Below, one piece after another: positions 7,621 through 9,969 of a stretch of 64,000 nt of DNA (its first letter is position 1; every line of letters starts with the position of its first letter). The notes below the pieces were generated by a model. It was not told the DNA's origin. It saw only the letters and a program-made list of their open reading frames with translations, and searched no databases. The stretch covers positions 192,001-256,000 of the forward strand of contig JBEKIW010000002.1 of assembly GCA_050011565.1 (NCBI GenBank), read 5' to 3'. This DNA is from Dehalococcoidia bacterium. Lineage in GTDB: Bacteria; Chloroflexota; Dehalococcoidia; GIF9; UBA5629. A program made the translations under genes and the position numbers.

Positions 7621-7836
7621 ACATCTATAAAAAGGTGCTTGACTTGGTTCTACGTAAAAGGGATAATTCTATAAGAAGCAGCGCAAACACTCTGATGCAC
7701 GAGGGTTACGACAATGGCGACGAAATCAACTAAGAAGGGTGCAAAATACTTCGTGGATGGTAAGCCAGCTTCTTTATTGGACGTTGTAGAAGCCTAGCTG
7801 AAATCTAAAACCTGACGGTTTAAAAAGGAGGTAATT

Positions 7837-7995
7837 ATGAGTATCTTATTAATTATCGGTATTATTATCCTGGCTTTGTGGCTGCTTGGATTCATCTTTT
7901 TCCGCAGTTTGGGTTGGCTAATCCATATAGCCTTGATTATTGGAGTTATTCTCCTTATCATCTGGCTACTGCGGAGTGTGCTTGGGCTCTTTTAA
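7837..7995 (+). CDS. lmo0937-like (DUF5670) small membrane protein, 52 aa (not in ORF track)
   Basis: RBS aaggaggt; MSILLIIGIIILALWLLGFIFFRSLGWLIHIALIIGVILLIIWLLRSVLGLF. Confidence 0.85.
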   Translation: MSILLIIGIIILALWLLGFIFFRSLGWLIHIALIIGVILLIIWLLRSVLGLF

Positions 7996-8009
7996 GCTTT
8001 ATTCATCCG

Positions 8010-8049
8010 TAAAAAAGAAGGGGGTTTTTCCTTTTCGTCCCCTTTTTTT
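8010..8049. terminator. Probable (bidirectional) intrinsic terminator
   Basis: aaaaagaagggg...ccccttttttt after the small ORF. Confidence 0.5.
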
Positions 8050-8125
8050 AGGCGTAGTATTATCCCTATGCCCAGAATTTTGCATTTGGTGCACAATTAT
8101 GCCTATTCCAATTACCTCCGTTACC

Positions 8126-8155
8126 TTACCTCACCAACCTGTCCACCGGTGACGC
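8126..8155 (-). pseudogene. Tyrosine integrase C-terminal remnant 3 (ASPVDRLVR*)
   Basis: 8127-8149 matches 8959-8981 at 21/23 nt; SPVDRL-type ending typical of XerD-like integrases. Confidence 0.55.
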
Positions 8156-8258
8156 TACCAATATCATAACTATTTAACATATCGTGCCTCGATTATATTA
8201 CTTCTACATGTTCACTATGCTATTATTTATTTAATAGTGATTATAGGAGGTGGCATCA

Positions 8259-8441
8259 ATGGCTGATAATATAACTAAAGGAAAATGGAACCAGGTCAAG
8301 GGCAAAGTCAGGGAAGAGACCGGTAAATTAACCGGCAATAAATCACAGGAAATCAGAGGTAAAGGGGAGCAAGCAGCCGGAAAAGTACAGGAACAGTACG
8401 GCAAGGCTAAAAGAAATATCAAAAAAGCAATAGGAGACTAG
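8259..8441 (+). CDS. CsbD family stress protein
   Basis: KGKWNQVKGKVREETGKLTGN...GKVQEQYGKAK; RBS aggagg. Confidence 0.92.
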   Translation: MADNITKGKWNQVKGKVREETGKLTGNKSQEIRGKGEQAAGKVQEQYGKAKRNIKKAIGD

Positions 8442-8500
8442 TCAGATTTAATTTACTATATCGATTATCTGTCCTGTGAAAGCATCAAGCTTATCTTCTG

Positions 8501-8815
8501 TTAGCGTGTATATTTCCGCGCCTTAACTGTTATGTGTTCTTTTCTTATATTAAGTCTCGCACTGAGCTCGTTAGCAAACTTGTGAGCATCTTGCTGCTTC
8601 TCAAAGAGCATTAGCGGGATGCCATGCTTATCCTCGGTCTTCCCTTTAAACTCGGTGATGTGTTTGTCGATGAAAGCTATCAGGTCTCCCTGTCTTTCTG
8701 GTCCTAAGTCCTTGGTAATGTAAACCTCGTGTGAGGCCTCATAGCTTGGAGTGAAGCCATCCCTGGGTCGCCACCTATGTACCGCTCTTTCTTCGTGTTC
8801 TTCGTGTTCCATCAA
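8501..8815 (-). CDS. Hypothetical protein
   Basis: 104-aa ORF with purine-rich RBS ggaaaggaaagg. Confidence 0.7.
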   Translation of the reverse strand: MMEHEEHEERAVHRWRPRDGFTPSYEASHEVYITKDLGPERQGDLIAFIDKHITEFKGKTEDKHGIPLMLFEKQQDAHKFANELSARLNIRKEHITVKARKYTR

Positions 8816-8868
8816 ATGCCTTTCCTTTCCGTTTCACTATGGCCTGGCCTCAATAATTGTACCACTTC

Positions 8869-8955
8869 TTAAGTTAGATTTGCCGTCACAATAGAGTTCA
8901 GTTTGAAGCAATCAATTGGCGAGTATTTCCTGTGAGCTTCAATTGCATCCAAGCC
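8869..8955 (-). pseudogene. Tyrosine integrase C-terminal remnant 2 (GLDAIEAHRKYSPIDCFKL...*)
   Basis: Protein-level match to adjacent remnant 1 (DAVEAHKKFSPVD) with mostly synonymous/conservative DNA differences. Confidence 0.65.
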
Positions 8956-8957
8956 TC

Positions 8958-9014
8958 CTACCTCACCAACCTATCCACTGGACTAAACTTCTTATGTGCT
9001 TCCACTGCGTCATA
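8958..9014 (-). pseudogene. Tyrosine integrase C-terminal remnant 1 (YDAVEAHKKFSPVDRLVR*)
   Basis: AH(K/R)(K/R)FSPVD is a characteristic terminal helix of XerC/D-like integrases; no upstream open frame. Confidence 0.7.
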
Positions 9015-9071
9015 TCAAGTGTTACAATTGTGCCAGAAAAGTAAAATTAAAGGGCGAGGAGGAAAGAGGAA

Positions 9072-9476
9072 GTGAAAGGAAAATTAATCTGGTCAGTATT
9101 CTGGGCGTTGGTTGGGGTTCCTATCATAATAGTCGGTACGCTAGTCGGTACGAGGTTTCCTCCATTCGGACAATTACTTGAGCGTTTTGTCCTTGTCGCC
9201 GTTCTTGCCGTTGGGCTTGTCCTCCTTGGCCTCGGGGTGACATTGATAATCTTGACCGTAAAAGCAAGAATGGGCGGAATGCTCAAGAAGTTCTTACTAT
9301 TAACTGGAGCTTCCGTCGTAGGACTGCCTGTTTTTGGCATCTTGCACAATGCGGTTAGTGCTCTGCTTAACACGGAGGAGCCTGTCTTCTTTATCATTGC
9401 AATCATTGTCTGCCCAATAGGTTTTCTAGTAGGTGCAATCGGAAGCATAGTTCTCACCATCAAGAGGATTAGATAG
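9072..9476 (+). CDS. Four-TM hypothetical membrane protein
   Basis: RBS gagg, GTG start; FLLLTGAS...ILHN...EEPVFFIIA pattern. Confidence 0.8.
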   Translation: MKGKLIWSVFWALVGVPIIIVGTLVGTRFPPFGQLLERFVLVAVLAVGLVLLGLGVTLIILTVKARMGGMLKKFLLLTGASVVGLPVFGILHNAVSALLNTEEPVFFIIAIIVCPIGFLVGAIGSIVLTIKRIR

Positions 9477-9478
9477 AG

Positions 9479-9526
9479 ACAGGATAACAAGAAGTCATTT
9501 ATGGCTTGCTTAATGGTAGTAGACAT
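9479..9526 (-). pseudogene. Probable integrase N-terminal remnant (MSTTIKQAINDFLLSC)
   Basis: RBS aaggagagg, ATG 9526, upstream TTGACC promoter-like element; sequence resembles the first helix of phage-integrase N-terminal SAM-like domains (recognised from memory) and breaks off at the 3' end of the opposite-strand gene. Confidence 0.5.
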
Positions 9527-9690
9527 TGAACCTCTCCTTATTCTTGTTTGAGTGCGTGCGACGATATACGAGAATCGAGAGAAGGTCAATAGCTTTGTGG
9601 CACATAAACTGAATATGATATTGGGGAAGGACAATACTTAATGACGTTGTTATAATATGTTTGAATTTGAATATCTAATGGGGAGGAGTT

Positions 9691-9966
9691 ATGTCACAAG
9701 AAGAGAAACCAGATAAGAAACCAGCGGCTGATAACTTTGCCGAAATGTTCAGGGCTTTCGGTCAGGCAATTGGTGAGGTGTTCGACGACCCGGAACTGAA
9801 AAGGAAAGCAAAAGAATTCGCTGACAGTGCTACAGATTCAGCAAAAACCCTGGCAAATAGATTTAAGGACGAGGATGTCAAAGCTAAATTCAGAGACGTG
9901 GGCAAGGCAGCTGAAGAATTCGGCAAGAGTGTGGCGGATAATTTCAAGACAGAGAAGAAAGAATAA
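9691..9966 (+). CDS. Hypothetical amphipathic helical protein
   Basis: RBS ggaggag; Ala/Lys/Glu/Phe-rich 91-aa ORF. Confidence 0.75.
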   Translation: MSQEEKPDKKPAADNFAEMFRAFGQAIGEVFDDPELKRKAKEFADSATDSAKTLANRFKDEDVKAKFRDVGKAAEEFGKSVADNFKTEKKE

Positions 9967-9969
9967 TTC

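Follow-up and report, generated by a model that had tools for sequence, protein, structure and literature searches.

Why should the ends of tyrosine-integrase genes, stripped of their cores, lie one after another between the accessory genes behind a tRNA gene? The question arises from a stretch of 64,000 nucleotides from a Dehalococcoidia bacterium (hereafter the window). Dehalococcoidia have small, streamlined genomes in which adaptive genes lie in a few plastic regions. A first-pass annotation had described one integrase 5′ stub and three 3′ tails interleaved with cargo genes near tRNA-Met; all of these features were found where it had placed them. The window holds part of an island array that is anchored at tRNA-Met, now frozen and without a remaining integrase. 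The explanation that we favor, and to which we give about an even chance, is that small elements consisting of an integrase and cargo accrete behind tRNA genes, that the old integrases erode, and that recombination at their 3′ ends inserts and reshuffles units.

Layout of the tRNA-Met array and identity of its integrase remnants

The array starts at the 3′ end of its anchor, the tRNA-Met(CAT) gene (10044-9970, minus strand; ARAGORN and Rfam tRNA, 68.2 bits), with the variable units directly downstream. Immediately behind the tRNA lies a cargo ORF of 91 amino acids (9691-9966, plus strand) with no Pfam match above the cut-off, followed by the promoter-like site (TTGACC-17-TATCGT; 9589-9561, minus strand) and the 16-codon 5′ stub (MSTTIKQAINDFLLSC; 9526-9479, minus strand) of a type-B integrase, with AAGGAGAGG standing ahead of the stub's ATG. 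The promoter motif of the stub, ..CTATTGACCTTCTC.., also precedes intact type-B integrases and is present in tRNA-repeat arms; for the window overall, a promoter scan gave 7 sites compared to 4.2 ± 2.4 in shuffles, i.e., not above shuffles. Next come the intact gene for a 134-amino-acid membrane protein (9072-9476, plus strand; no Pfam family), which is cargo, the type-B tail W1 (YDAVEAHKKFSPVDRLVR, 18 codons plus stop; 9014-8958, minus strand), and, abutting it, a second type-B tail, W2 (beginning GLDAIEAHRKYSPIDCFKL and ending in a stop; 8955-8869, minus strand), which continues into the promoter module belonging to the gene that follows. Further along are a cargo ORF of 104 amino acids (8815-8501, minus strand; no Pfam family), a csbD-family cargo gene (8250-8441, plus strand; PF05532, E = 1.8e-18), and the type-A tail W3 (ASPVDRLVR, 9 codons plus stop; 8155-8126, minus strand), the latter surrounded by a repeated noncoding module of ~190 nt (8052-8249) that is also the csbD upstream region. 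A small DUF5670 membrane gene (7837-7995, plus strand; PF18919, E = 3.8e-8), multicopy in this and related genomes, is the last variable unit ahead of a conserved rubrerythrin flank. The window holds no further copy of the tRNA-Met 3′ end, and hence no unit bounded by tRNA repeats, and none of the 10 PF00589 matches in the genome falls within it (C2:192001-256000).

All four peptides correspond to the ends of real tyrosine-integrase genes by homology to whole-gene ends, as the first-pass annotation had supposed. The genes in question form two families of Xer/IntI-like tyrosine integrases, type A and type B, found beside tRNA genes in this bacterial family; by sequence affinity, the stub, W1, and W2 derive from the tRNA-Met-linked type B and W3 from the tRNA-Ala-linked type A. 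The stub and its 5′ leader match residues 1 to 33 of a whole type-B integrase that starts MSTKAKVTTIKQAIDSFLLSCK (tblastn, 64%), and with nhmmer the stub aligns to positions 19 to 63 of the type-B DNA profile (E = 2.2e-6) and W1 to positions 889 to 944 (E = 8.8e-7). W2, together with the next gene, aligns to an intact type-B integrase tail and its neighbor gene in another genome, G079. W3 matches type-A tails and shares 21 of 23 bases with W1 (again 21 of 23 using a pattern with up to 5 mismatches). W1 and W2 had been said to differ largely at synonymous sites, which holds for five codon changes but leaves five conservative replacements. All three tails begin downstream of the catalytic tyrosine (..NRY..), so that no catalytic residues are left in them. 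Whole type-A and type-B genes carry PF00589 (E = 1e-31 and 3e-29, respectively), and they score 53.7 and 58.4 bits against the integron-integrase profile TIGR02249 (cut-off, 265), which does not make them IntI-level; their best models are XerA/XerC/XerD-like and likewise below cut-off.

Integrase fragments and cargo units in related loci

The pattern recurs throughout the family. A DNA-profile search (nhmmer, types A and B) of 40 related loci yielded 9 whole integrases and 122 fragments. The fragments divide into 96 with the 3′ end, 15 with the 5′ end, and 11 internal ones; these counts are not independent, since many of the fragments are orthologs or duplicates of one another. Seventy-two of the 96 3′-end fragments retain an open frame up to a stop codon in the expected position. 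Outside the family, most matches in a class-wide search were whole genes, so that dense tail arrays are shown here within the family. Arrays contain up to 11 tails, all in one orientation and with about one tail per cargo gene, and runs of 5 to 11 tails occur without tRNA repeats. Type-A and type-B tails are mixed behind one tRNA, with type A found behind tRNA-Met and type B behind tRNA-Ala. Intact integrases were found only adjoining a tRNA or tRNA repeat: all six type-A integrases checked begin 3 nt after tRNA-Ala, and both type-B integrases checked follow tRNA-Met or its repeat. The excess of 3′ ends may partly reflect detection, the C terminus being the best-conserved part, and may also reflect deletions bounded by cargo signals 10 to 20 nt past the stop. 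Tails are also sometimes lost, as in the window, which lacks the tail of the stub's gene, and in G012, which lacks that of its truncated integrase. Orphan tails fall into 29 distinct sequences of type A and 41 of type B, with pS of ~0.6 and pN of 0.10 to 0.18 for a set chosen by protein motif, which lowers pN; they are therefore what remains of numerous distinct genes that once coded for protein.

Behind these tRNA genes, small units accumulate that comprise one or two accessory genes with promoters of their own, and the tRNA-Met locus was found to differ by whole cassettes among related genomes and metagenome contigs, consistent with the variable cargo that had been anticipated for it. The tRNA was located in 11 same-genus tRNA-Met loci, and seven of these have one to four downstream copies of the tRNA 3′ 30 nt (copy length, 30 to 49 nt; spacing, 0.4 to 2.2 kb), with no integrase fragment between these repeats. 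Across the family's arrays, the boundary of a unit is in some cases a copy of the tRNA 3′ half and in others an integrase 3′ end. The individual units recur in varied company. The 91-amino-acid ORF has a 92% identical copy behind tRNA-Met in G006; the membrane gene is found in the same place in G004 (92%) and, in G012, behind tRNA-Asn and bounded by a tRNA-Asn 3′ repeat (84%). Homologues of the 104-amino-acid ORF are present in G024 (85%) and G079 (88%), in the latter after an intact integrase. The csbD unit (8137-8452) occurs in three contexts, one of them in G014 (94% identical), where it is flanked on one side by a tRNA-Ala 3′ repeat with a type-A 5′ stub and on the other by a W3-like tail, and a Zn-ribbon unit is found with its tail in four contexts. 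Copies of the ~190-nt W3 module (82 to 92%) occur in the genome's own tRNA-Ala array and in G012, with the embedded tail degenerate (ASSAD plus stop). Tails form the left edge of cargo blocks common to several genomes, the shared blocks beginning between −27 and +57 nt from the tail Ser codon in 12 cases.

The metagenome evidence comes from assembled contigs, with uncovered parts left aside and runs of small share set aside as evidence of habitat. The contigs showed no circular form and no empty site. Overall, it consists of gains and losses of 62 to 66 nt at tails and of different neighbors at a tail. W1 carries a 62-nt duplication in contigs of two metagenomes, W2 is affected by a skip of 8891-8956 in a contig of one metagenome and W3 by a skip of 8097-8159, also in a contig of one; 9545-9969 is missing from contigs of two metagenomes. 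The csbD unit is joined to a W1-type tail instead of W3 in contigs of two metagenomes, and in other populations the csbD and 104-amino-acid units stand in reversed order. A contig joint from 8149 to 9491 was set aside as evidence, as it may represent the whole integrase of another strain.

The body of the intact integrase in G000 is 90% identical to a hollow copy in G004. The final 30 nt of this G000 integrase, taken with the Zn-ribbon unit, agree at 97.6% with an orphan tail that G004 carries 4 kb downstream. To the left of the membrane gene that they share, G000 and G004 hold complementary pieces of one integrase, the deletions each ending within 3 to 56 nt of a neighboring gene. A hollow integrase of 388 nt (33 codons, a spacer, and 55 codons) is 88.7% conserved between G004, where it adjoins the tRNA, and G012, where it lies mid-array.

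Decay, exchange, and the search for a site in the tails

In the favored explanation, each unit would have come with or beside an integrase gene, and superseded integrases would be eaten by deletions halting at neighbors under selection, which would leave 5′ stubs and, far oftener, 3′ tails. Recombination within the conserved last 30 to 80 bases of integrase genes would then insert, delete, and reorder units through a Campbell-type exchange between a circle or foreign DNA with a tail and a resident tail, with RecA or the integrase itself as the candidate enzyme, and each exchange would leave a tail on both sides of the cargo. The stub in the window would represent the newest type-B integrase, whose 3′ part survives in G004, and W1, W2, and W3 would be relics of three older integrases (B, B, and A, respectively). 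This explanation would account for the tail runs without tRNA repeats, the mixing of type-A with type-B tails, and the existence of a hybrid integrase; it does not predict the common end point (model positions 85 to 90) of 5 of 10 type-A 5′ stubs. The first-pass proposal that recombination inside the integrase 3′ end stacks displaced tails fits several of the results, in a form indistinguishable by the present analyses from homologous recombination or bounded decay.

A rival, and in our estimation doubtful, account is that of a dedicated platform, in which the integrase would recognize a site in the last ~30 to 80 bases of its own gene and tail-bearing cassettes would insert site specifically, each supplying a new C terminus and displacing the old tail, much as in integrons or in phages that substitute the 3′ end of a gene. 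The Xer/IntI-like integrases of Dehalococcoidia might then conceivably run a gene-capture system with its site in their own last codons, where one-gene cassettes, by bringing a spare C terminus, would build integron-like arrays exchanged among tRNA-Met, tRNA-Ala, and other islands. Such a system would suit the near one-to-one ratio of co-oriented tails to cargo genes, with intact integrases only at a tRNA or repeat, and the recurrence of eroded tail modules next to different cargo. At least 10 minimal type-A tails share a starting codon (GCN AGT CC), with unrelated sequence upstream and a downstream unit 97.6 to 98.7% identical, and in at least eight places tails stand in tandem (A|B or B|B) 2 to 5 nt apart. 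In these Xer/IntI-like enzymes, the tail can be aligned to the NCBIfam integron-integrase profile, and synonymous conservation within the tail is slightly raised. Against a dedicated site, the tail 5′ ends are not fixed: they spread over model positions of about 700 to 938, and the precise crossover core expected just 5′ of the tails is not borne out because these ends cover the last 30 to ~250 bases of the gene. Variation among the tails is concentrated at synonymous positions, which is the behavior of coding relics and not of DNA sites; the cargo has its own promoters, on either strand; the integron-integrase score falls far short of the cut-off; and the tails are unlike the tRNA sites evidently used by the same integrases.

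Several candidate roles for the tail sequence were tried and rejected. As attC-like sites, tails gave no hairpin or dyad in 8 of 8 single-strand folds covering both strands (z = −0.75 to +1.34), which also counts against the platform, and an Rfam scan returned only tRNAs. As mimics of the tRNA attachment site, they produced, in 20 tRNA-versus-tail alignments judged against shuffles, a single 12-nt match at p = 0.034. The GGGGCAGGTCA motif past the tails, considered as an att core, has 147 sites with only 13 beside a tail and is a general promoter- or leader-like module before many genes, recurring as GTGGTACAAT..GGGGCAGGTCA ahead of many cargo genes on either strand. The 23-nt left part AATCAAAMGGTNARATTRCAGC, considered as a wide site family, has 5 copies in 4 of 77 genomes, all of one genus, and looks like eroded integrase sequence. 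A promoter within the tail as the reason for its retention was likewise discarded, the tail lying ~70 to 80 nt upstream of the nearest −10 element.

Decay without any recombination at the tails, which we regard as unlikely, would have each unit integrate at the tRNA with its own integrase, the tails being the last remnant where deletions could not enter cargo signals just past the stop. The varied internal breakpoints of the hollow integrases, the complementary G000/G004 deletions, the coding-type divergence of the tails, the promoter-like modules beginning 10 to 20 nt after many of them, and the tRNA repeats interspersed in some tail arrays all agree with this. However, within one and the same array tRNA repeats, although they too abut cargo, are greatly outnumbered by tails (11 tails lie beyond the last repeat in L057/L058), and decay alone does not explain type-A tails behind tRNA-Met and type-B tails behind tRNA-Ala, different left halves of tails joined to different right halves, or the reversed csbD/104-amino-acid order. 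The remaining alternative, also raised by the first-pass annotation, is that of nonautonomous mini-elements whose integrase core was swapped for cargo, with both gene ends as mobile termini. Stub, cargo, and tail do stand in that order around the membrane gene in the window and around csbD in G014, and the conserved 388-nt hollow integrase and the shared end point of half the type-A stubs could be read the same way. For the window this fails, since in G004 the integrase to which the window's stub belongs ends, complete with tail and stop, before the membrane gene is reached, and the stub and W1 therefore come from different gene copies. Elsewhere most tails have no stub partner (96 tails versus only 15 stubs) and no tail precedes a tRNA repeat, as a terminus would need to, making mini-elements highly improbable.

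Tails as array punctuation and comparison with known systems

Accessory genes are thus stored singly behind tRNA-Met and tRNA-Ala genes, with an integrase 3′ end, not a tRNA repeat, as the commonest punctuation of the arrays, and csbD, membrane protein, and Zn-ribbon genes recur in islands at different tRNAs in different genomes. The layout shows how small Dehalococcoidia genomes acquire and rearrange genes one at a time. Should the tails be active sites of recombination, they would constitute a second, independent route to integron-like gene capture and a handle for locating mobile cargo in metagenomes; if scars only, they would still be of use for marking and dating a very high turnover of elements. 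In the literature searched, we found no description of rows of integrase 3′ ends.

Two comparable systems are themselves Dehalococcoidia islands. An account of the ssrA islands of Dehalococcoides, which cites Pavlovic et al. 2004, proposes tandem accretion of integrative elements and of integrase-less cis-mobilizable elements (CIMEs). Those islands share several features with the present arrays: units are stacked one after another behind a tRNA-type gene and bounded by direct repeats of the 3′ end of that gene, many of them are without an integration module, and an integrase lies beside the anchor gene (PMC3146451). The ssrA units are 10 to 20 kb, whereas the present ones are of one or two genes (0.4 to 2 kb) with boundaries that are mostly integrase 3′ ends instead of anchor-gene repeats, the window having no tRNA repeat at all (PMC3146451). 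High-plasticity region 1 of Dehalococcoides mccartyi, from the same bacterial class and with the same tRNA-Ala anchor as the type-A relatives, has islands with repeated tRNA 3′ fragments and one truncated recombinase homologue beside a 25-bp repeat; the sections of that account drawn on here make no mention of integrase-tail rows, one-gene periodicity, or tRNA-Met arrays (PMC2764846).

Integrons resemble the present arrays in that an integrase of the Xer/IntI branch heads a co-oriented array whose units, mostly of a single gene, carry one repeat each. Their components are IntI, attI, and cassettes bounded by attC sites that fold as imperfect hairpins, and the cassettes are promoterless, co-oriented, and expressed from a common promoter. 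Here, in contrast, the tails have no hairpins and the repeat evolves as coding sequence, the cargo has its own promoters on both strands, and the integrase has no IntI-level match. Another Xer-dependent arrangement is that of the dif modules of Acinetobacter plasmids, flanked by 28-bp dif-like sites with dyad symmetry; folds of the present tails gave neither dyad nor hairpin. An SSV-type split had also been invoked: in SSV1-type elements the integrase gene is split by attP, and the idea of an attachment site within the integrase frame, with gene pieces at the element ends, is common to both. The order C-part, element, N-part and a tRNA-derived core in the gene were not found here, where the order is start then end, the tails are unlike tRNA sites, far shorter, and without the catalytic tyrosine, and the G004 layout also speaks against a split. 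Phage 21 and e14, which insert in icd carrying a spare 3′ end, offer a further parallel in 3′-end insertion, repair of the gene by the carried copy, and a displaced 3′ pseudocopy downstream, except that the target here would be the integrase gene of another mobile element, many times over, and that no such insertion was caught in the act.

A tRNA-Met array of integrase ends

The array in the window is anchored on a minus-strand tRNA-Met(CAT) gene (10044-9970). Moving away from it come a 91-aa ORF on the strand opposite to the tRNA (9691-9966); a promoter-like site, a Shine-Dalgarno box and a 16-codon integrase 5′ stub, MSTTIKQAINDFLLSC (9526-9479, minus strand); an intact 134-aa membrane gene on the strand opposite to the stub (9072-9476); integrase 3′ tails W1 (YDAVEAHKKFSPVDRLVR and stop; 9014-8958, minus strand) and W2 (GLDAIEAHRKYSPIDCFKL.., to its stop; 8955-8869, minus strand), the latter starting two bases past the former; a 104-aa ORF (8815-8501, minus strand); csbD (PF05532; 8250-8441); and a third tail, W3 (ASPVDRLVR and stop; 8155-8126, minus strand). 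The stack of integrase ends and cargo (small accessory genes) that the first-pass annotation had placed behind tRNA-Met is therefore borne out, with every feature found in order. W1 and W3 have a 23-nt direct repeat in common (21/23 match). The sequencing runs containing the stretch are labeled peat and freshwater sediment, and the source organisms are uncultured Dehalococcoidia MAGs.

Other elements were noted at or near the array. A promoter/leader-like module, ..AACTTAAGAAGTGGTACAATTATTGGGGGCAGGTCA.. (8830-8869, minus strand), recurs ahead of many cargo genes, on both strands, in many array loci, and a non-coding motif near the tails, GTGCACCAAATGCAARAATCTGGSCA (8060-8086, minus strand), is repeated in the extracted loci L026, L054, and L058. 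Elsewhere in the window's own genome (G000) there is a 91-nt copy (95%) of the membrane gene's 3′ end (contig C5, 48945-49035). In the related genome G004, about 1 kb of extra sequence, including a 246-aa membrane ORF, lies between the rubrerythrin and DUF5670 genes (L014, 3679-4694; compare window 7647-7696), which extends the variable zone to the rubrerythrin gene.

The ends trace to two tyrosine integrases. Contig C1 of G000 carries one whole integrase (type A), adjoining tRNA-Ala(GGC) and ending in ..FKRHVLASPVDRLMH and stop, with another stack of tails behind it. The other whole integrase (type B), starting with MSTKAKVTTIKQAIDSFLLSCK.. and ending in ..NRYCQAVGCYDAVEAHKKFSPVDNFKSS and stop, is found in relatives, where it adjoins tRNA-Met or a tRNA-Met repeat. 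Judged by sequence, the stub, W1, and W2 are assigned to type B and W3 to type A. PF00589 and a SAM-like domain at the N terminus are present in both types. Among NCBIfam models they match XerA/XerC/XerD-like ones best, every match falling under the cut-off, and the alignment to the integron-integrase profile reaches the tail at a score of 53.7 bits versus a cut-off of 265.

The start of the type-A gene may need revision. Five of 10 type-A 5′ stubs stop at positions 85-90 of the type-A DNA profile though the sequences that follow differ, and at the stub ends the type-A stretch has low amino-acid and high codon identity and no ATG. It is possible that this stretch is an arm or leader without coding function and that the recurrent break marks the true ORF start. 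In G000 (L001, 7575-7700, contig C1), no ATG was found after tRNA-Ala; the frame stays open across the tRNA-Ala 3′ half, the first ~25 codons are kept as DNA and not as protein, and translation may actually begin at the TTG of LIEGFLLSCK. At the other end of the gene, some C-terminal fragments are predicted as ORFs of 59 to 82 aa with their own start codon (L058, 4369-4548 and 9205-9453; L064, 13022-13216) and retain the catalytic-Tyr region.

Stub and tails as separate relics

The window could hold a single hollowed integrase, i.e., a copy with an internal deletion, around the membrane gene, one of the readings first proposed. Comparison with G004 argues against this. G004 is 92% identical to window 7696-9479, and the likeness breaks exactly at the joint between the membrane-gene stop and the stub, where G004 has a type-B integrase 3′ part with its own tail (..SPVDNIR and stop), beginning 56 nt past tRNA-Met and ending 42 nt ahead of the membrane unit. 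G000 and G004 thus each keep a part of the same integrase, the two parts complementing each other, and that integrase ended ahead of the membrane gene; W1 lies past the membrane gene and so has to derive from an older copy. W2 and the 104-aa gene align with G079, where an intact type-B integrase supplies the matching tail and its neighbor the matching gene, and in G014 the order is tRNA-Ala 3′ repeat, type-A 5′ stub, csbD, and W3-type tail. Together, these matches indicate that no fewer than four integrases have left stacked relics in the window. The earlier interpretation is thus partly supported: it stands as to the identity of the integrase ends, while stub and W1 are two relics and not one hollowed gene.

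Tail arrays in related genomes

A tblastn survey of 12 tRNA-Ala loci within the bacterial family revealed one repeated order: tRNA-Ala, whole or hollow integrase, orphan tails, and finally, on the far side, a tRNA-Ala 3′ repeat, with all six whole integrases beginning 3 nt past the tRNA. The long arrays have 11 tails over a 22-kb span (G024 contig C7, L057/L058), 8 tails (G077, L064), and 6 tails (G016, L065), co-oriented within each array and usually with one cargo gene between adjacent tails. A reading-frame-independent census of 40 loci, using nhmmer models from seven type-A and three type-B genes, gave 9 whole integrases and 122 fragments (96 with the 3′ end, 15 with the 5′ end, 11 internal), counts that do not represent independent events because there are orthologous loci among the 40. 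The census is also conservative, W2 and W3 having escaped detection. Peak coverage per tenth of the gene was 9, 5, 3, 3, 1, 2, 2, 4, 15, and 41 for type A and 6, 3, 0, 0, 1, 1, 3, 6, 21, and 59 for type B, and 72 of the 96 3′-end fragments still run in frame to a stop codon where one is expected. Outside the family, 55 of 301 genomes in a class-wide sample had matches, mostly whole genes.

Among same-genus tRNA-Met loci, only those of G000 and G004 have tails. Seven of the 11 in which the tRNA was found carry one to four copies of the tRNA 3′ half, spaced 0.4 to 2.2 kb apart; the cargo there consists of single genes, and integrase fragments are absent. Three such loci (L015 in G006, L016 in G007, and L017 in G010) have three to four copies at that spacing, in units of one or two genes without integrase; at about 4300-4395 in L017, a repeat is preceded by an integrase-type promoter, an RBS and ~10 codons reading directly into it. 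A third tRNA island contributes a tail-free unit with a single gene: in L079 (G012 contig C34, 1732-2400), an 84% homologue of the window's membrane gene sits directly behind tRNA-Asn(GTT), with the tRNA-Asn 3′ end repeated after it. An orphan type-B tail (HSKFSPVDGMR and stop; contig C6, 81095-81060, minus strand) also lies in a mosaic accessory region of G000 (L067, C6 76000-86000) in which no tRNA was found over 30 kb scanned; its neighboring genes each match a different contig in relatives, and 459 nt of the region recur with 100% identity at C1 509337-509795.

Accretion, erosion, and proposed recombination at tails

Several features point to the tails being coding relics rather than dedicated sites. 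Their 5′ ends are scattered in loose clusters (profile positions 744-938 for type A, 696-895 for type B), and the breakpoints of hollow integrases vary. The distinct orphan-tail sequences (29 type A, 41 type B) have a pS of about 0.6 and a pN of 0.10 to 0.18, the latter biased down by protein-motif selection of the set. In whole genes, synonymous conservation is only mildly raised in the tail (about 0.62 to 0.68 versus a baseline of 0.45 to 0.55). No single-strand folding of the tails and no resemblance to tRNA sites were found. The cargo consists of ordinary accessory genes (DUF1508, DUF2196, GIY-YIG, Zn ribbon, hydrolases, peroxiredoxin, methyltransferases, Usp, rhomboid) with their own promoter-like module, on both strands.

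Passive scarring, however, would not readily explain runs of 5 to 11 tails without an intervening tRNA repeat, because one repeat is expected for every integrase that accretes in the ordinary way. These runs and several further signs suggest recombination inside the conserved 3′ end. Tails of both types occur behind one and the same tRNA (W3 behind tRNA-Met; the tail T5 and others behind tRNA-Ala). The whole integrase of G000 appears hybrid: its body is 90% identical to a hollow copy in G004, while in its last 30 nt plus a Zn-ribbon unit it matches, at 97.6% identity, an orphan tail that lies 4 kb farther down in G004. Another block (98.7%) likewise begins at the same codon, GCT AGT CC; the Zn-ribbon unit, seen four times, has identical left (tail) and right edges; and blocks common to different genomes start -27 to +57 nt from the tail's Ser codon (12 cases). 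Variants in other metagenomes, taken from contigs only, include loss of 63 nt (W3) or 66 nt (W2), duplication of W1 (62 nt), absence of the 91-aa unit, the G004-type joint, and a csbD unit joined to a W1-type tail across five other letters, which puts csbD ahead of the 104-aa gene. Finally, tails abut (A or B with B, 2 to 5 nt apart) in at least eight places, some orthologous.

The best fit is a combination of accretion, erosion, and tail recombination. Small integrase-bearing elements accrete at tRNA genes, as repeats and position show; superseded integrases erode, as the fragments show; and recombination inside the conserved 3′ end would insert, remove, and reorder units, with a tail left on each side. 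The enzymatic step could be either an exchange of the RecA type between conserved tails or a reaction specific to the integrase.

A limited literature search found no published description of rows of integrase 3′ ends. Sections of two Dehalococcoides studies describe related situations: tandem islands at ssrA, accretion, and integrase-less units read as cis-mobilizable elements (PMC3146451), and tRNA-Ala islands that contain repeats of tRNA fragments and a single truncated homologue of a recombinase (PMC2764846). The pattern reported here, of interest because of its widespread occurrence, is a new form of such tRNA-anchored accretion arrays.
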